Positions 1 to 11,861 of a stretch of DNA of 11,861 nt are shown here, piece after piece. Both the position numbers and the translations under genes were made by a program. This DNA is from a virus (taxonomy: Duplodnaviria > Heunggongvirae > Uroviricota > Caudoviricetes), in the IMG/VR virus record IMGVR_UViG_2585427739_000006. The stretch is one strand, 5' to 3'. The notes under the pieces are model-generated. The model had not been told where the DNA came from. It did no database searches and saw only the letters and a program-made list of their open reading frames with translations. Numbering within the stretch: position 1 is the first letter of the stretch; every line of letters begins with the position of its first letter.

Positions 1-283
1 TATGGCGACGCTGGGGCGTCTTATGAGCCTGCTGTCACCCTTTGACGTGGTGATATGGATGACGGATGGCTGGCCGCTGTATGAATCCCGCCTGAAGGGA
101 AAGCTGCACGTAATCAGCAAGCGATATACGCAGCGAATTGAGCGGCATAACCTGAATCTGAGGCAGCACCTGGCACGGCTGGGACGGAAGTCGCTGTCGT
201 TCTCAAAATCGGTGGAGCTGCATGACAAAGTCATCGGGCATTATCTGAACATAAAACACTATCAATAAGTTGGAGTCATTACC
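1..283 (+). mobile_element. IS1 insertion sequence, right-hand portion (window starts inside the element)
   Basis: ORF 2..268 encodes an InsB-type transposase C-terminus ending ...HYLNIKHYQ. Bases 261..283 (ATCAATAAGTTGGAGTCATTACC) match the IS1 terminal inverted repeat as I recall it. Recalled, not searched. Confidence 0.88.
2..268 (+). CDS. insB: IS1 transposase InsB, C-terminal 88 aa (5' end cut by window edge)
   Basis: Open frame running from the window edge to a stop at 266..268; the protein tail matches the IS1 InsB C-terminus from memory. Confidence 0.85.
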
Positions 284-2920: not shown

Positions 2921-3112
2921 TTAAAGACCTGCCGGGATTTCGATATTATCCTGGTGAATAACTTTATCGACCGGGTAACAGTTACCGGGAATTTTCTGTT
3001 CGGTTGCTGCAGTCATACACTCCTGCATTGTCCTGTGAACACTGACTGCAATATCAACTGGCTCTCCGGAAACAAGAAAAACTGTCAGAACAAGCGCAAA
3101 TGCTGAATTCAT
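2921..3112 (-). CDS. ydfD: YdfD-like small membrane/lysis protein (63 aa) with N-terminal hydrophobic segment
   Basis: ATG at 3112 with AAGGA 8 nt upstream; protein MNSAFALVLTVFLVSGEPVD... matches my recollection of Qin YdfD. Its start overlaps the dicB stop in an ATGA arrangement. The ORF-track start at 3166 lacks a ribosome-binding site. Confidence 0.6.
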   Translation of the reverse strand: MNSAFALVLTVFLVSGEPVDIAVSVHRTMQECMTAATEQKIPGNCYPVDKVIHQDNIEIPAGL

Positions 3113-3297
3113 TGTGCACATCCTTTTGGCATCAGACGTAAACGAGCCAGCATTGAAACAATGCATATTTTATTTAATAGCTCCCGTTCTTGTTTTCTCT
3201 TGTTAATGGCATCTTCAGTAAATACAGGGTTACTGATAGTGACACCAATTTCAAAACAACCTTCAGACGTATTAACGTTTGGTAATAACGTTTTCAT
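3109..3297 (-). CDS. dicB: DicB cell-division inhibitor (62 aa)
   Basis: ATG at 3297 with GAGGA 7 nt upstream; translation MKTLLPNVNTSEGCFEIGVTISNPVFTEDAINKRKQERELLNKICIVSMLARLRLMPKGCAQ matches E. coli K-12 DicB as I recall it. The longer 97-aa ORF-track version has no ribosome-binding site. Confidence 0.75.
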   Translation of the reverse strand: MKTLLPNVNTSEGCFEIGVTISNPVFTEDAINKRKQERELLNKICIVSMLARLRLMPKGCAQ

Positions 3298-3466: not shown

Positions 3467-3524
3467 AAAAACGGCGGCAGAGCAGTCACGGAGTAAAACT
3501 GATACCGCCAAACGTCACCAGAAA
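3467..3524 (-). ncRNA. dicF: DicF small RNA (ftsZ-targeting sRNA of the dicB operon), 53 nt plus 3' U-run
   Basis: Minus-strand sequence TTTCTGGTGACGTTTGGCGGTATCAGTTTTACTCCGTGACTGCTCTGCCGCCG followed by TTTTT. This agrees at 52 of 53 positions with the K-12 DicF sequence as I remember it, and it lies immediately upstream of dicB as in Qin. Confidence 0.75.
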
Positions 3525-3643: not shown

Positions 3644-3720
3644 GGTTGCCACAACCGGAAGCGCACGGTCGAATTAAATTTAACGACACCGTACAGTGAG
3701 ACGAACTTCGCCGTGCGCTT
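3644..3720 (-). promoter_or_regulatory. Structured untranslated leader upstream of dicF: 10-bp perfect inverted repeat with nested palindromes (candidate RNA processing or regulatory structure)
   Basis: AAGCGCACGG (3659..3668) pairs with CCGTGCGCTT (3711..3720) around a 42-nt loop that itself contains GTCG/CGAC flanking the palindrome TTAAATTTAA (3674..3683). A small GGTTG/CAACC hairpin lies at 3644..3656. No convincing ORF in 3525..3799 on the minus strand. Confidence 0.3.
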
Positions 3721-3799
3721 TCGTGTTGTGTGCCTGCTTTTAACCACGTCAGGCGAGGTGGTATCCTTCTTATTCCGAATAACCAAGAAGGAAATCTAT

Positions 3800-4000
3800 A
3801 TGACTAAAGAAGAATTTGTCTCTTATATTTTTGATAAAACGGTTGAAATGTATGCCGCTACTTACGGGTCCTGTAATCCTCTGAATAAACCAGAGGGGAA
3901 AGATGATTTCGACAAAATTTACCGCTTCTTGGAGGACCGCTATATCAAAAGGTTAGAGGACGCAGGGATCAAATCCCCAGTGAAGTCACCATTGTCCTGA
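3800..4000 (+). CDS. Hypothetical protein, 66 aa, AT-rich gene antisense to the leftward operon
   Basis: ATG at 3800 preceded by AAGGA with a 7-nt spacer; first 100 bp are about 37% GC. No recognisable motif. Its 3' end overlaps the convergent 121-aa gene by 32 bp. Confidence 0.45.
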   Translation: MTKEEFVSYIFDKTVEMYAATYGSCNPLNKPEGKDDFDKIYRFLEDRYIKRLEDAGIKSPVKSPLS

Positions 4001-4334
4001 GAACTTGCAGGACGTCATGATCGTAACTTCCATCCAAACCGCGACGGCAAATTGCTTCTCGTATTACCGGAAGCAGTTCGCTGGAAATCTCGGTGCATAT
4101 TTCACCTGCTAATACGCCTGGCTCAAGTGAGAATATTGGTGAACTTACGGTCTTGGTCTCGACAGTTTCAGAGTCAGTGCCAACATTATAAAGCTCAACG
4201 AAAGCGGTCTTGATTTTCCGGGCCAGATCTTTTGCTGGCTCGCTTGCAATATCTTTCCCGATTTCTCGCAGCACAGAATGCAATGTATGAGCTGCTGTTT
4301 TCTGTACATCAGACGGTAAATCTTTAAATTCCAT
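3969..4334 (-). CDS. Hypothetical protein, 121 aa, at the position where a cI/DicA-type repressor would be expected
   Basis: ATG at 4334 with GAGG 6 nt upstream (the ORF-track start at 4346 has none). No obvious helix-turn-helix. Divergent from the rightward operon across a 212-bp intergenic region. Confidence 0.5.
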   Translation of the reverse strand: MEFKDLPSDVQKTAAHTLHSVLREIGKDIASEPAKDLARKIKTAFVELYNVGTDSETVETKTVSSPIFSLEPGVLAGEICTEISSELLPVIREAICRRGLDGSYDHDVLQVLRTMVTSLGI

Positions 4335-4546
4335 CGTCAGCCTCATCAGTCAGTGTTTCTGGCTAACCAGCAACGCGCGCCAGATTCGGTTTTAAACGTT
4401 TTGCTTTTGGTATATGTCATCGCGGTGAACGTACCGTCCTGGTTGGGGAACACGCCACATACAGGAGGCATCTGGCGGCGAGCTTCTGTATGATCCCAAG
4501 GTTTATGACGAATATCGTAAGACGAAGCGGGCGGGGCGGTTGAACA

Positions 4547-5068
4547 ATGAAAATCACTCCTGAACAGGCTCGTGAGGCTCTGGATGCCTGGATATGTCGA
4601 CCAGGAATGACACAGGAGCAGGCGACGATATTAATCACTGAAGCATTCTGGGCTTTGAAAGAGCGCCCGAACATCGATGTTCAGCGTGTCACAGATGAAG
4701 GTGGCGCGGTTGATCAGCGAGCGCTTGGCGTTAATCGAGTGAAGATATTCGAACGCTGGAAGGCTATCGACACTAGGGATAAGCGTGAAAAGTTCACGGC
4801 GCTAGTGCCTGCAATTATGGAGGCTATCCGGATTAATGATTTCAGGTTGTATCGTGAAATTAGTGACGGAAAAAGCATCACGTACATGATCGCCGGGTTA
4901 AACAAAGAATATGGCGATGTGGTGGAGTCCGGACTGCTTTTTGCTGATCCTGCCGTAGTGGATCGTGAAACTGACGAACTTATAGAAAAAGCAATTGCTT
5001 TCAAACTTGCGTATCGACAGCAATACCAACAAAAAGCTGGATGGAATTATGAGCCTTCTTTTTGCTGA
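4547..5068 (+). CDS. YdaT-like protein (173 aa), possible CII-analogous regulator; first gene of the rightward operon
   Basis: ATG at 4547 directly after an in-frame TGA. The segment ...RWKAIDTRDKREKFTALVPAIMEAIR... resembles what I recall of the Rac/CP-933P YdaT family. Assignment is from memory and tentative. Confidence 0.55.
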   Translation: MKITPEQAREALDAWICRPGMTQEQATILITEAFWALKERPNIDVQRVTDEGGAVDQRALGVNRVKIFERWKAIDTRDKREKFTALVPAIMEAIRINDFRLYREISDGKSITYMIAGLNKEYGDVVESGLLFADPAVVDRETDELIEKAIAFKLAYRQQYQQKAGWNYEPSFC

Positions 5069-6014
5069 ACGCCCACTGGTTATAAACACACAGCTTGCGA
5101 TGAAGATTGGCTTAAATGAAGCCATTGTGTTGCAGCAGTTGCATTACTGGTTGAGAGATACCAATTCCGGCATGGAATGTGATGGTGTTCGCTGGATTTA
5201 CAACACAACGGAACAATGGCTGGAACAGTTCCCATTCTGGTCAGAGTCAACGTTAAAGCGCGCGTTTGCAAGTCTGAAAACGCTGGGGCTTTTGCGTTGT
5301 GAAAAGCTCAATAAATCAAAGCGCGATATGACCAATTTCTACACGATCAACTATGGGAACGAGCTTTTAGATGGTGGCAAATTGAACGAATCCATCGGTT
5401 CAAAATGCGCCGCTCCATCAGGTCAAAATGACACGATGGAAGAGGTCAAAATGAAACGCTCCATTGGTTCAAAACGACCCAATGTCATCGGGTCAAAATG
5501 GCCTGATGATCTTACAGAGAATACAACAGAGATTACTACAGAGAATAAAAACACTTTTCGTCCGGAAGCTTCGCAACCGGACCCGCAGACCGCTGAACAG
5601 GATTTTTTAATCCGGAACCCCGACGCGGTTGTGTTTAGTGCGAAAAAACGCCAGTGGGGTAGCAGGGAGGATTTGGCGTGTGCGCAGTGGATTTGGGGGC
5701 GGATCGTGAACCTTTACGAACAGACTGCCAGCGACGATGGAGAGATCATGCGACCAAAAGAGCCTAACTGGACAGCCTGGGCCAATGACGTGCGCACAAT
5801 GCGGATGCTGGATGGCAGAAGCCACAGACAAATTTGCGAAATGTTTGGTCGGGTACAGCGAGATCCATTCTGGGTAAAAAACATCATGAGCCCGTCAAAA
5901 CTCCGCGAAAAATGGGACGAACTGGTCATCCGCTTGGGACGTTCACCTGTACAGCGTTGTGTGAATCATATTTCTGAACCGGATACAGAAATTCCGCCTG
6001 GTTTCAGGGGATAA
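5049..6014 (+). CDS. Replication initiator, lambda O-like (origin-binding), about 321 aa
   Basis: Long ORF containing the iteron array in its middle, as in lambda O, where ori lies inside the gene. Start is uncertain: ATG 5049 has a weak ribosome-binding site; TTG 4995 and ATG 5100 are alternatives. Overlaps the upstream gene by 20 nt. Confidence 0.7.
   Translation: MSLLFAERPLVINTQLAMKIGLNEAIVLQQLHYWLRDTNSGMECDGVRWIYNTTEQWLEQFPFWSESTLKRAFASLKTLGLLRCEKLNKSKRDMTNFYTINYGNELLDGGKLNESIGSKCAAPSGQNDTMEEVKMKRSIGSKRPNVIGSKWPDDLTENTTEITTENKNTFRPEASQPDPQTAEQDFLIRNPDAVVFSAKKRQWGSREDLACAQWIWGRIVNLYEQTASDDGEIMRPKEPNWTAWANDVRTMRMLDGRSHRQICEMFGRVQRDPFWVKNIMSPSKLREKWDELVIRLGRSPVQRCVNHISEPDTEIPPGFRG
5392..5501. 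repeat. Origin iterons: five direct repeats at 23-24 bp spacing
   Basis: TCCATCGGTTCAAAATG (5392..5408), TCCATCAGGTCAAAATG (5415..5431), AGAGGTCAAAATG (5442..5454), TCCATTGGTTCAAAACG (5461..5477), TCATCGGGTCAAAATG (5486..5501). Core GGT(T)CAAAA(T/C)G ends at 5408, 5431, 5454, 5477 and 5501. Confidence 0.78.
5515..5550. repeat. AT-rich block of three 12-bp direct repeats adjacent to the iterons (candidate DNA-unwinding element of ori)
   Basis: ACAGAGAATACA / ACAGAGATTACT / ACAGAGAATAAA in tandem, immediately after the iteron array. Mirrors the iteron-plus-AT-rich layout of lambdoid origins. Confidence 0.55.
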
Positions 6015-6634: not shown

Positions 6635-7096
6635 ATGACCCCAATAAAAATATTTATGACTATTGCTGATTTCAAACGGCCTAAATTGGAGCTCCCAAAC
6701 GGGGCAAACAAACTACTACTGCACTCTTGCTGTGCTCCATGTTCCGGTGAAGTGATGGAGGCGCTTCAGGCCTCGGGAATCGACTATACCATCTTTTTCT
6801 ACAACCCGAACATTCATCCTCAGAAAGAGTATTTAATTCGTAAGGATGAGAATATTCGCTTTGCTGAACAACACGGCGTGCCATTTATTGATGCTGATTA
6901 CGACACAGACAACTGGTTTGAACGTGCCAAAGGAATGGAATGGGAACCCGAGAGGGGGATCCGTTGTACCATGTGTTTTGACATGCGTTTTGAGCGGACA
7001 GCGCTGTACGCTGCTGAAAATGGTTTCAGTGTGATCAGCAGTTCACTGGGCATTTCACGCTGGAAAAATATGCAGCAGGTTACCGTCACTGGATAA
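6635..7096 (+). CDS. QueH/DUF208-like protein (153 aa), possibly C-terminally truncated
   Basis: Contains [20 protein letters not shown] and [11 protein letters not shown], which match the signature motifs I associate with the DUF208/QueH family. It is shorter than typical QueH and ends at a TAA that is in frame with the next gene. No ribosome-binding site at either candidate ATG (6635, 6656). Confidence 0.5.
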
Positions 7097-9296: not shown

Positions 9297-9356
9297 AATA
9301 AATCCTGTACTTTTGATAGTTGAGAGGTAAGCGTCAACGGAGCACCGTATTGACGC

Positions 9357-10970
9357 TTATTTATTAGTGAGTACTACGTTCCATGGCAGGAGTTCGTCAA
9401 CTCGGTTGGAAGGCCATTCCGGCAGTACGCTCAGGATATGGCGCAGATACGCTTCCGGATCGATACCATTCAACCGGCAGGTGCCGATCAGCCCGTACAA
9501 CAGTGCACCACGCTCGCCGCCGTGATCGCTACCGAAGAACACGTAATTTTTCTTTCCGAGACAGACTGCACGAAGCGCTCTTTCCGCTGTGTTATTGTCC
9601 GCCTCCGCCAGACCGTCATCACAGAAGTTGCACAACGCAACCCAGTGCTTCCTGATATACCGGAACGCATCTCTCAGACGGCATTTTTTCGATAACGTGT
9701 GTTCTTTCTCCTGCATCAGCTTATACAGGGAAGTCAGTAGCGGTTTACTCTGCATTTGCCTGACCGCCAGGCGTTCAGACACCGGCAACCCGCGTATTTC
9801 GTGCTCAATGGCGTACAGTTCGCCGATTAGTTTCAGTGCTTCTTCCGCCGTCGCGCTTTTGGTACTGATATATACATCGTGGATTTTGCGCCGCGCATGA
9901 GCCCAGCATCCTGCTTCCGTCAACGCGCCGCCTTCACGTTCGGCACTGAACAGCCGATCGTAACCTGCGAACGCATCTGCCTGCAGGATACCCCGGAAGG
10001 GACGAAGGTGTTGCTCCGGATGTTTACCCTGATGGTCCGGTGAGTAGGCGAACCAGACCGCCGGAGGTTCTGGCGAACCGGCATTTCGGTCATCCCGGAC
10101 ATACGTCCAGATATATCCTGTTTTCGCCTTCTTCCTGCCCGGTGCCAGTACTTTTACTGGTGTGTCATCAGTGTGAACCTTGCGGGTGTTCATCACATAA
10201 CTGTACAGGGCATCATTCAGCGGCGTCATTAACTGGCAGCACGCATCAACCCAGTTGGAGAGTAAGGCACGGCTCAGTTCGACACCCTGGCGGGCAAAGA
10301 TTTCACTCTGACGATACAGTGGCAGGTGTTCGCAGTATTTTCCCGTTAACACGCGGGCAAGTAACCCCGGGCCCGCGATACCACGCTCTATCGGACGGGA
10401 TGGTGCCGGTGCTTCAACGATGCAGTCACATTTTGTACAGGCTTTTTTTACCCGTTCTGTGCGGATCACTTTCAGGGCGCTGCTCACCAGTTCCAGTTGT
10501 TCTGCGCTGACTTCCCCCAGATAATCCAGCTCACCGCCACACTCCGGGCAACAGCTTTCTTCAGGCTCCAGGCGGTATATTTCACGGGGGAGATGTGCCG
10601 GTAACGGACGACGATGGCGCGACTGTCGCAACTGGCGGGGAACCAGCGGGTCATCCTCACGCCCACTGTAACGATCGCTTTCCTGCTCGCGTTGTTTCAG
10701 CAGGGCTTCAGCCTGTTCAACCTCACGACGCAGTTTTTCAGAACGGGTTCCGAACAGCATCCGGCGCAGTTTTTCTATCTGAGCCCGCAGATGCTCTATT
10801 TCCCGTTCATCTTCTTCGATCTTTTCTTCGGCACGTGCCAGTGCAGAGCGCAGGAAGGCCTCCGTCTCTTCAACCAGACTCAGTTGCTGGTCTTTCTGAC
10901 GGAGGGCTTCAGCCTGCTCAGAGAGCAGCCTTTCCAGCTCAGCGATGCGAATGAGGTATTTCTGACTCAT
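9357..10970 (-). CDS. IS66-family transposase TnpC (537 aa)
   Basis: Long ORF with a coiled-coil/leucine-zipper-like N-terminus, a CxxC...CxxC zinc-finger region (CCPECGG...CTKCDC) and an acidic catalytic core, as in IS66 TnpC. Confidence 0.9.
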   Translation of the reverse strand: MSQKYLIRIAELERLLSEQAEALRQKDQQLSLVEETEAFLRSALARAEEKIEEDEREIEHLRAQIEKLRRMLFGTRSEKLRREVEQAEALLKQREQESDRYSGREDDPLVPRQLRQSRHRRPLPAHLPREIYRLEPEESCCPECGGELDYLGEVSAEQLELVSSALKVIRTERVKKACTKCDCIVEAPAPSRPIERGIAGPGLLARVLTGKYCEHLPLYRQSEIFARQGVELSRALLSNWVDACCQLMTPLNDALYSYVMNTRKVHTDDTPVKVLAPGRKKAKTGYIWTYVRDDRNAGSPEPPAVWFAYSPDHQGKHPEQHLRPFRGILQADAFAGYDRLFSAEREGGALTEAGCWAHARRKIHDVYISTKSATAEEALKLIGELYAIEHEIRGLPVSERLAVRQMQSKPLLTSLYKLMQEKEHTLSKKCRLRDAFRYIRKHWVALCNFCDDGLAEADNNTAERALRAVCLGKKNYVFFGSDHGGERGALLYGLIGTCRLNGIDPEAYLRHILSVLPEWPSNRVDELLPWNVVLTNK

Positions 10971-11000
10971 GGCCGTTTTTATAATGCGGTCAGGAGTTTT

Positions 11001-11351
11001 TTACAACATTGTCAGTGCGTTAAGGCGGGATGTTTTTGGCTGACGCCAGTCCAGCTTATCGAGGAGCATTGCCAGTTGCGAGCGGGTAATGGATATCTTA
11101 CCGTCACGCACCGCAGGCCAGATAAACTGACCTTCCTCAAGGCGTTTGGTGAACAGGCACAGACCATCAGCATCAGCCCACAGGATTTTAATCGTGTCTC
11201 CCCGTCGGCCACGGAAGATAAACAGGTGACCGGAGAAGGGGTTATCATCCAGCACATGCTGTATCTGCTCCCCCAGACCGTTGAAGGATTTACGCATATC
11301 AGTAACGCCGGCAACGAGCCAGATACGGGTACCTGATGGGAGTGAAATCAT
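11001..11351 (-). CDS. IS66-family accessory protein TnpB (Orf2, 116 aa)
   Basis: 116-aa ORF whose ATG (11351) overlaps the tnpA stop as ATGA. The sequence MISLPSGTRIWLVAGVTDMRKSFNGL... is typical of IS66 Orf2. Confidence 0.88.
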   Translation of the reverse strand: MISLPSGTRIWLVAGVTDMRKSFNGLGEQIQHVLDDNPFSGHLFIFRGRRGDTIKILWADADGLCLFTKRLEEGQFIWPAVRDGKISITRSQLAMLLDKLDWRQPKTSRLNALTML

Positions 11352-11785
11352 CGTCCCCTCCCGGTCAGCTCACGGATCAACACCGTGAGCAGCTCTGGTG
11401 AAGGATTTTCCAGCATCATTTTACCGTAATGGAATTCCACATGGCAGGAAGCTGCACAAGCACCTGATAATGCCTCCGGAGCAGGAGCATCTGTAGCACA
11501 GCGCGGGGTGTCGATAAGTTCCACTGGAACCAGAGTCGGAGAGGCCGGAAAAGATTGTGATACTGTAGGGCCTACAATAGTTGGAGGCATTCTACGAGAA
11601 ATACGTCCTTCTCTTTGCCAGAGGCGTAGCCATTTAAAAATCAGGTTGTTATCAACGCCATGTTCCCGGGCCAGTTGTGCAACATTGGCATTTGGTTTCG
11701 AAGCCAGTTCAACCATATGAAGTTTAAATTCATTAGAAAATATCCGGCGGGTTCCGGAGCGCCAGTCTGTAGGTTTATCCATCAA
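11348..11785 (-). CDS. IS66-family TnpA (Orf1, 145 aa), helix-turn-helix protein
   Basis: First ORF of the IS66 operon, starting 76 bp from the window edge; N-terminal helix-turn-helix-like region. Confidence 0.85.
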   Translation of the reverse strand: MMDKPTDWRSGTRRIFSNEFKLHMVELASKPNANVAQLAREHGVDNNLIFKWLRLWQREGRISRRMPPTIVGPTVSQSFPASPTLVPVELIDTPRCATDAPAPEALSGACAASCHVEFHYGKMMLENPSPELLTVLIRELTGRGR

Positions 11786-11861
11786 TAGAACTCCGTCTAA
11801 TTTAGAAGGAGCTCTAATTTAGTCTGCAAGGAGCAGGTGTTACAGACGGCATTGGCTTTAC

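Follow-up and report, generated by a model that had tools for sequence, protein, structure and literature searches.

A Single 840-bp Deletion Very Probably Excised the Immunity Core of a Qin-Type Escherichia coli Prophage Remnant and Left a ydaT-Like Gene Stranded

A single 840-bp deletion very probably excised the immunity core of a Qin-type Escherichia coli prophage remnant represented by the 11,861-nucleotide stretch of DNA analyzed here (IMG/VR record IMGVR_UViG_2585427739_000006; hereafter the window), leaving an intact ydaT-like gene (4547–5068, plus strand) stranded beside the scar. This gene seems to be the first of its rightward operon because everything upstream of it has been deleted, including a DicA-family repressor gene and the 5′ part of a dicC-type cro gene. 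What looks like a divergent control region to its left is, as read from alignments with intact relatives, two gene fragments joined head to head.

Deletion Junction and the Intact Allele

Window positions 3700–5300 were compared by megablast with 5,426 complete E. coli genomes. The region was found 100% identical and colinear in at least 10 E. coli chromosomes among the matches listed, and many other E. coli genomes were 99.9% identical, with the match falling in two pieces that span 2,441 bp as against 1,601 bp in the window. Strain E2863 (L001, NZ_AP018802) served as the intact-allele reference for a base-by-base comparison. On the left flank, identity with E2863 extends through window position 4462 (E2863 position 4763); on the right flank, it starts at window position 4460 (E2863 position 5601). 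The junction (4460–4462, no strand) is thus a 3-bp microhomology, TAC, common to both flanks, and 840 bp of E2863 (4764–5603, with ±3 ambiguous bases) are missing from the window. Over the approximately 1.6 kb compared, the two sequences differ by one mismatch per flank, and the deletion is therefore recent relative to the intact allele. Both end points interrupt open reading frames (ORFs), with a DUF1391 gene losing its first 12 codons and dicC its first 42; because the end points cut ORFs and the long form is in the majority, the polarity is that of a deletion and not of an insertion.

Two proteins are encoded in the extra DNA of E2863: a 135-aa helix-turn-helix (HTH) protein (minus strand) and a 75-aa member of the Cro/CI family (plus strand). 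The former scores 239 bits against the NCBIfam DicA model (cutoff, 101), and the latter 165 bits against the NCBIfam DicC model (cutoff, 130). The 75-aa protein also matches Pfam P22_Cro, and its match to YdaS_toxin is weak (22.7 bits, below the cutoff of 30). In the intact 75-aa DicC, the P22_Cro domain covers residues 3–58, with the HTH at approximately residues 12–30, and the dicC stop codon of E2863 lies 17 nt into the ydaT-like gene. The order in the intact relatives is the ydfA-like gene, a dicBp-like promoter with operators, the DicA repressor gene, the divergent dicC (cro) gene, and the ydaT-like gene. The deleted segment holds codons 1–12 of the ydfA-like gene, the dicBp-like promoter with its operator-like repeats, the complete DicA-family repressor gene, the dicA–dicC intergenic region with a further copy of the operator-like repeat, and dicC codons 1–42, including the HTH. 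At the level of sequence comparison, the deletion, its exact end points, and the identity of the lost genes are established.

The dicC Remnant and the Apparent Control Region

What is left of the dicC-type, P22-Cro-like gene is a 3′ remnant (4462–4563, plus strand) consisting of codons 43–75 and the stop codon, with no usable start and no HTH. It overlaps the start of the ydaT-like gene by 17 nt, the same overlap as in the intact relatives. A tblastn search of the window with the relatives' DicC located residues 42–75 at 4459–4560 (97% identity, E 3e-20), and the corresponding search of the whole window with the relatives' DicA found no DicA-like coding sequence (best E 8.1). The ORF list of the window contains no other HTH repressor ORF beside the locus. 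The dicC frame is open from 4429 and is without ATG or GTG, and its sole TTG would give 7 aa; in genomes with the same allele, the remnant is a RefSeq pseudogene, labeled "transcriptional regulator" or "dicC" and lacking the N-terminus.

Facing this remnant is the 5′-truncated ydfA-like DUF1391 gene (4346–4471, minus strand), seen as a 41-aa ORF (Pfam DUF1391, E 5e-21). The ORF is composed of residues 13–50 of the intact 50-aa protein preceded by a fortuitous ATG and two codons (together MPP) that come from the antisense strand of the dicC remnant, and its DUF1391 match starts at profile position 12, consistent with the loss of the first 12 codons. A 46-aa ORF with a GTG start (4353–4493, plus strand) runs antisense to it. 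Pfam gave no match for the plus-strand ORFs and open frames of 4353–4563, and no family match was found for the small ORFs at 4353–4493 (plus), 4417–4674 (minus), and 4429–4563 (plus).

An earlier note on this DNA had taken 4335–4546 for a divergent region holding no cro-like gene, its only plus-strand peptides being of 17–22 aa. That interval is instead taken up by the truncated DUF1391 gene, the junction, and the dicC remnant, and the peptide count passes over both the 46-aa GTG ORF and the dicC frame open from 4429. With respect to the cro-like gene, the statement is right for an intact gene—no intact cro-like or HTH ORF lies upstream of the ydaT-like gene, with Pfam giving nothing and tblastn finding DicC residues 42–75 only—and wrong for a fragment, since dicC codons 43–75 are present. 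A hidden HTH ORF with an alternative start, considered in the same note, was not found: the small ORFs have no family match, and the remnant has neither a usable start nor an HTH. A ydaT-like gene placed directly after a Cro-type gene and divergent from the repressor gene is found in the intact relatives and in K-12 Qin and is not found in the window, where the missing Cro-type neighbor is secondary, being due to the deletion.

Regulatory DNA

In K-12 Qin, dicBp is repressed by DicA, with operators in the dicA–dicC and dicA–dicBp intergenic regions, and no additional promoter was detected within the dicBF operon (PMC10448788). In E2863, the motif TGAGAAAACTCAA (core TTGAG-N4-CTCAA) occurs twice, at 4915–4927 and 5451–5463, and a third copy, imperfect and inverted, lies at 4877–4890. 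The copies at 4915–4927 and 4877–4890 bracket a −35/−10-like site (minus strand, 4904–4876) directly upstream of the DUF1391 gene, at the position of K-12 dicBp, and the copy at 5451–5463 lies within the 77-bp repressor–cro intergenic region. By its position and symmetry, TGAGAAAACTCAA is a putative operator; it is unlike the K-12 DicA operator Oc, TTGTTAGTCATAACTAACAA.

All of the motif copies and the promoter-like site in E2863 fall inside the deleted interval. The window contains no copy of TGAGAAAACTCAA when up to 2 mismatches are allowed, and a simple consensus promoter scan of 3900–4700 returned no promoter-like site. The sole operator-like inverted repeat that a search of 4400–4750 for conserved ones turned up (4458–4467/4483–4492) straddles the junction and is broken in the right-flank haplotype represented by L003. 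Because this repeat spans the junction and is unconserved, neither a YdaT site nor a PRE-like site can be proposed in 4400–4750. In the part of 4335–4546 that this search covered, an interval that the earlier note had proposed to search for conserved operator repeats, there is nothing beyond this junction-spanning repeat, and no TGAGAAAACTCAA copy lies there either. The ydaT-like and dicF/dicB operons have thus probably both lost their native promoters. The consensus scan, taken together with the K-12 literature on a related, non-identical immunity type, suggests that both operons would be largely silent.

Between the intact relatives and K-12, identity is 57% for DicA and 70% for DicC; the last 33 residues of DicC are nearly the same, and the N-terminal and HTH parts of the two proteins differ. 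Qin-type prophages thus come in at least two immunity types, given that DicA is only 57% identical and that the repeated palindromic motif of the intact relatives, TTGAGAAAACTCAA (regions E2863 4875–4930 and 5399–5476), stands against the K-12 Oc TTGTTAGTCATAACTAACAA.

The YdaT-Like Protein

The product of the intact ydaT-like gene, recognized from the ORF list, Pfam, profile, and fold, is a 173-aa protein that scores 26.1 bits against Pfam YdaT_toxin, PF06254 (cutoff, 21; E 1.2e-5). Apart from a few that are short fragments, nearly all of its listed homologues carry PF06254, and "toxin YdaT family protein" is the name given to many of them; no NCBIfam model matches the 173-aa protein. Single-sequence phmmer against the PDB gave only marginal matches (E 0.05–0.07), and a family profile was therefore needed. 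The profile, built from 39 members, matched the crystal structure of CP-933P YdaT (8bt1, E 5.9e-6) and the prophage protein 3c4r (E 1.2e-5), with no credible PDB match beyond these two.

An AlphaFold model of the protein based on a 39-sequence alignment reached a pLDDT of 84.9; an earlier model based on an 8-sequence alignment (pLDDT 53.9) was discarded. In a Foldseek search of the PDB with the accepted model, the top six matches were chains of 8bt1 and 3c4r (probability 1.00; TM 0.59–0.63 by target; 26–30% identity), and the match after them had an E of 0.9. The POU-type HTH of YdaT is marked by a long loop between two helices (PMC9986795), and the model has helices at residues 23–35 and 57–73 with a 21-residue loop between them. 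On the strength of profile and predicted fold, the 173-aa protein is assigned to the YdaT family of CII-equivalent transcription factors. The YdaT-like identity put forward earlier is thus borne out, with Pfam above its cutoff and both profile and Foldseek agreeing on 8bt1 and 3c4r; the comparison with solved YdaT structures that the earlier note had in view gave E 5.9e-6 and 1.2e-5 for the two.

The gene's counterpart in K-12 is shorter. K-12 YdfX has 96 aa and matches the first 93 aa of the 173-aa protein at 98% identity, ydfX of MG1655 (L013 3347–3637) corresponds to window 4547–4825, and ydfX overlaps dicC by 17 nt, as the ydaT-like gene does in the intact relatives. Judged from this correspondence, K-12 ydfX is a YdaT-family (CII-equivalent) gene of which truncation has left the 5′ part. 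Because ydfX is a truncated ydaT-like gene, the complete Qin-type immunity region consists of DicA divergent from DicC and a YdaT-like protein, parallel to RacR divergent from YdaS and YdaT.

The Leftward Operon and the Rest of the Element

To the left of the junction, the operon following the truncated DUF1391 gene contains a hypothetical gene (3969–4334, minus strand; 121 aa as annotated, or 125 aa from an ATG at 4346), the DicF small RNA gene (3472–3523, minus strand; Rfam RF00039, 72.5 bits against a gathering score of 48), dicB for a 62-aa cell-division inhibitor (3109–3297, minus strand; Pfam DicB, E 9.6e-40, and annotation), and ydfD for a DUF1482 lysis protein (2921–3112, minus strand; DUF1482 match and annotation). 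It also includes a gene for an 823-aa exonuclease. With the DicF RNA, dicB, and ydfD all present, the leftward operon is of Qin type. In addition, the plus strand within window 3800–4000 carries a hypothetical gene for 66 aa that has a good ribosome-binding site and converges on the 121/125-aa gene with an overlap of 32 nt; neither has a family match. A transcript of the 66-aa gene would be antisense to the leftward operon and would head toward the ydaT-like gene.

To the right, the next gene of the rightward operon (5049–6014, plus strand; 321 aa in RefSeq) starts within the end of the ydaT-like gene. It is named "phage replication protein O" in some records, and no family model matched it above cutoff. 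Downstream come genes for DUF977, a truncated QueH, DUF968, and the antiterminator Q. A second internal deletion, of 1,728 bp, lies at window 7081–7085 (relative to L007 1554–3282) and is also present in strain 127 (L002). Lost with it were the QueH C-terminus, one hok-like and one Rem-like gene, and the 5′ end of a gene for a 92-aa protein. In K-12, Rem acts as the antirepressor of DicA; with the Rem-like gene deleted, the window is therefore without both the repressor and its antirepressor.

The outer parts of the window are bounded by insertion sequences. An IS1 end (window 1–283) adjoins the exonuclease gene on its 3′ side, a place occupied in relatives by the excisionase and integrase genes, and an IS66-family element (9332–11861; three ORFs, ISEc43/ISEc23-like) follows a lipocalin (blc-like) gene. 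In the whole-window search, this exact arrangement of IS1 and IS66 occurred in no complete E. coli genome of the collection.

Distribution, Haplotypes, and Continuing Decay

An 82-nt probe spanning the junction found a full match in 14 of the 5,426 complete E. coli genomes, and its halves were found separately in approximately 2,250 genomes. The hosts and countries of origin of the 14 genomes vary; where the allele is identical, the integrase and excisionase genes adjoin rspB. Strains carrying the allele include 127 (NZ_CP023377) and NT1F25 (NZ_CP075472). The exact 41-aa fusion ORF, which can arise only from this junction and hence marks the allele in other genomes, was found on 482 contigs in 467 sample blocks.

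In four of the 14 junction genomes, a different right flank begins 17 nt beyond the junction. In this second right-flank haplotype (L003, L004, L007; window 4479–5201), three differences lie no more than 40 nt from the junction, a stretch of 194 nt is then identical, and the sequence after it diverges by approximately 6%; the YdaT-like protein has four amino-acid changes. Related places number up to 9 per genome in the megablast of window 3700–5300. The two haplotypes are more likely to reflect a deletion that happened once, with paralogous prophage copies later acting as donors in gene conversion, as conversion would halt where homology ends, and recurrent deletion at the same site is less likely.

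Of eight distinct allele contexts, two have the nonsense change G20* in the ydaT-like gene, one has an IS insertion there, and another an in-frame insertion. In the carriers concerned (L008, L009, L010, L012; locus coordinates 5395–5925), the IS insertion lies near codon 90 and the in-frame insertion gives a protein of 176 aa. G20* and the IS insertion in other carriers point to relaxed selection rather than retention for function.

Proposed Mechanism and Alternative Explanations

Illegitimate recombination at the 3-bp microhomology would have removed the repressor gene, the operators, the promoters, and the 5′ part of dicC in a single step. The lost dicA–dicC intergenic region would have held the PR/PRM-type promoters, and with the native promoters gone both operons would be largely silent; the ydaT-like gene would also have lost its translational coupling to dicC. 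The Qin repressor gene is counted among the essential genes (PMC5917428). Loss of the repressor would nevertheless have been tolerated here, the same deletion having taken dicBp, as the toxic dicF/dicB operon has no other known promoter. The ydaT-like gene, intact in the window, would then be stranded within a recently created pseudo-operon, although its product may keep some residual function, for example via read-through transcription.

The claim that the ydaT-like gene heads a rightward operon driven from a divergent promoter region at 4335–4546, as part of an immunity switch that dispenses with Cro, is highly improbable. The intact ydaT-like ORF, the lack of an intact cro-like ORF upstream, and the recurrence of the allele on 482 contigs would each suit such a switch; however, the supposed control region is two gene fragments, repressor gene and operator-like repeats are missing from the window and promoter-like sites from 3900–4700, the dicC fragment is a RefSeq pseudogene, and the ydaT-like gene is broken in other carriers. 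Relatives with 99.9% identity in the flanks, moreover, carry the canonical DicA/DicC module. These relatives might conversely be taken as the derived form, with the short allele ancestral and the 840 bp an inserted immunity cassette, in keeping with the mosaic, modular nature of lambdoid immunity regions and with the difference between the relatives' DicA/DicC and those of K-12 in the N-terminal and HTH parts next to a conserved DicC C-terminus. An insertion is scarcely credible when its end points would lie within ORFs, leaving DUF1391 short of 12 codons and dicC of 42, when the long form is commoner by more than 100 to 1, and when the long arrangement is present in K-12 Qin. The probability that an assembly or sequencing artefact collapsed the region is negligible, and this candidate was rejected: the same junction recurs independently in 14 complete genomes and in hundreds of other assemblies.

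Two further readings accept the deletion and add to it. One holds that it was selected as a disarmament, a kind of domestication, removing the bistable DicA/DicC switch and the toxic dicF/dicB promoter together and so preventing spontaneous or Rem-induced filamentation; it amounts to the preferred explanation plus selection, and it is unlikely. The joint loss of repressor and dicBp is the combination that avoids lethality (PMC10448788), the rem-like antirepressor region is also deleted in the window, and the allele occurs in hundreds of assemblies with two flank haplotypes. That spread may nonetheless be clonal hitch-hiking, the allele is found in just 14 of 5,426 complete genomes, and the ongoing decay of neighboring genes in carriers looks neutral. 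The other reading, drawn by analogy with lambda PRE and CP-933P PRE, is very unlikely: a retained, YdaT-activated leftward PRE-like promoter at the dicC/ydaT boundary (approximately 4460–4600) would read into the truncated ydfA gene, dicF, and dicB. If this were true, a cell-division inhibitor and a small RNA would be turned on when a near-identical YdaT arrives in trans, for example from another lambdoid prophage induced in the same cell, and the module would act as a sensor of co-resident prophages.

Simple loss of the immunity core by deletion remains the preferred reading. The switch has been destroyed, and this is ordinary prophage decay, of which the remnant is already annotated in RefSeq. 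Of the earlier description of the switch as "non-canonical or degenerate," the second term is apt, in view of the 840-bp deletion, and the first is not, as the 99.9%-identical relatives have the canonical DicA/DicC layout. The view of the element as a cryptic prophage agrees with the IS1 end in place of int/xis, the IS66-family element on the right, and the second, 1.7-kb deletion; the term "domesticated" is unsupported, the ydaT-like gene having been broken independently in other carriers by nonsense mutation and IS insertion.

Significance

An apparent switch without Cro is hereby corrected to a plain deletion scar, a correction of small practical value. The exact junction and the 41-aa marker ORF allow the allele to be identified elsewhere. 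The case also represents a naturally occurring deletion of a repressor of the DicA type, the K-12 counterpart of which is on the list of essential genes, and this deletion has been tolerated, plausibly via co-loss of the dicBp-type promoter. Recognition of K-12 ydfX as a truncated YdaT-family gene is of modest interest to cryptic-prophage specialists.

Comparison with Known Systems

The closest known system is K-12 Qin, with the order rspB, intQ′, ydfE′, ydfD, dicB, dicF, ydfC, ydfB, ydfA, dicA, divergent dicC, and ydfX. The two share the rspB-adjacent site and a leftward operon with the ydfA-like DUF1391 gene, DicF RNA, dicB, ydfD, and the exonuclease gene (ydfE in K-12), and the intact relatives also share dicC followed by a YdaT-like gene with the 17-nt overlap. 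The window differs from K-12 Qin in that the 840-bp deletion has left it without dicA, the operators, dicBp, and the 5′ part of dicC, in that its nearest intact relatives are of an immunity type with the operator-like motif TTGAGAAAACTCAA and not Oc, and in having the 121/125-aa hypothetical gene in place of ydfB and ydfC.

With lambda and P22 (cI/c2, cro, cII, OL/OR), the intact relatives share a repressor gene between two operator-bearing promoter regions, one PL-like (dicBp) and one PR/PRM-like (PMC10448788), as well as a divergent cro gene followed by a gene in the cII position. The window, in contrast, retains of this layout just the gene in the cII position and the operon that lay downstream of the PL-like promoter; of a lambdoid switch it has neither a repressor gene, nor an intact Cro with its HTH, nor repeated operators over divergent promoters.

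YdaT, the CII equivalent, is located after the Cro-like YdaS (PMC9986795), and the 173-aa protein shares Pfam family PF06254 with the YdaT of Rac and CP-933P. Its profile, its predicted fold, and the two helices with a long loop are shared with CP-933P YdaT (8bt1) and with 3c4r, whereas it is only 26–30% identical to the solved proteins and its C-terminus is approximately 30 aa longer. In the intact relatives, the ydaT-like gene holds the cII position after a Cro-type gene, as in the YdaS–YdaT systems. The partner Cro in these relatives is, however, of the DicC/P22-Cro type (YdaS_toxin, 22.7 bits against a cutoff of 30), and the repressor is DicA-type and not RacR or PaaR2 as in Rac and CP-933P. 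In the window itself, the ydaT-like gene stands without Cro partner and repressor, both having been deleted.
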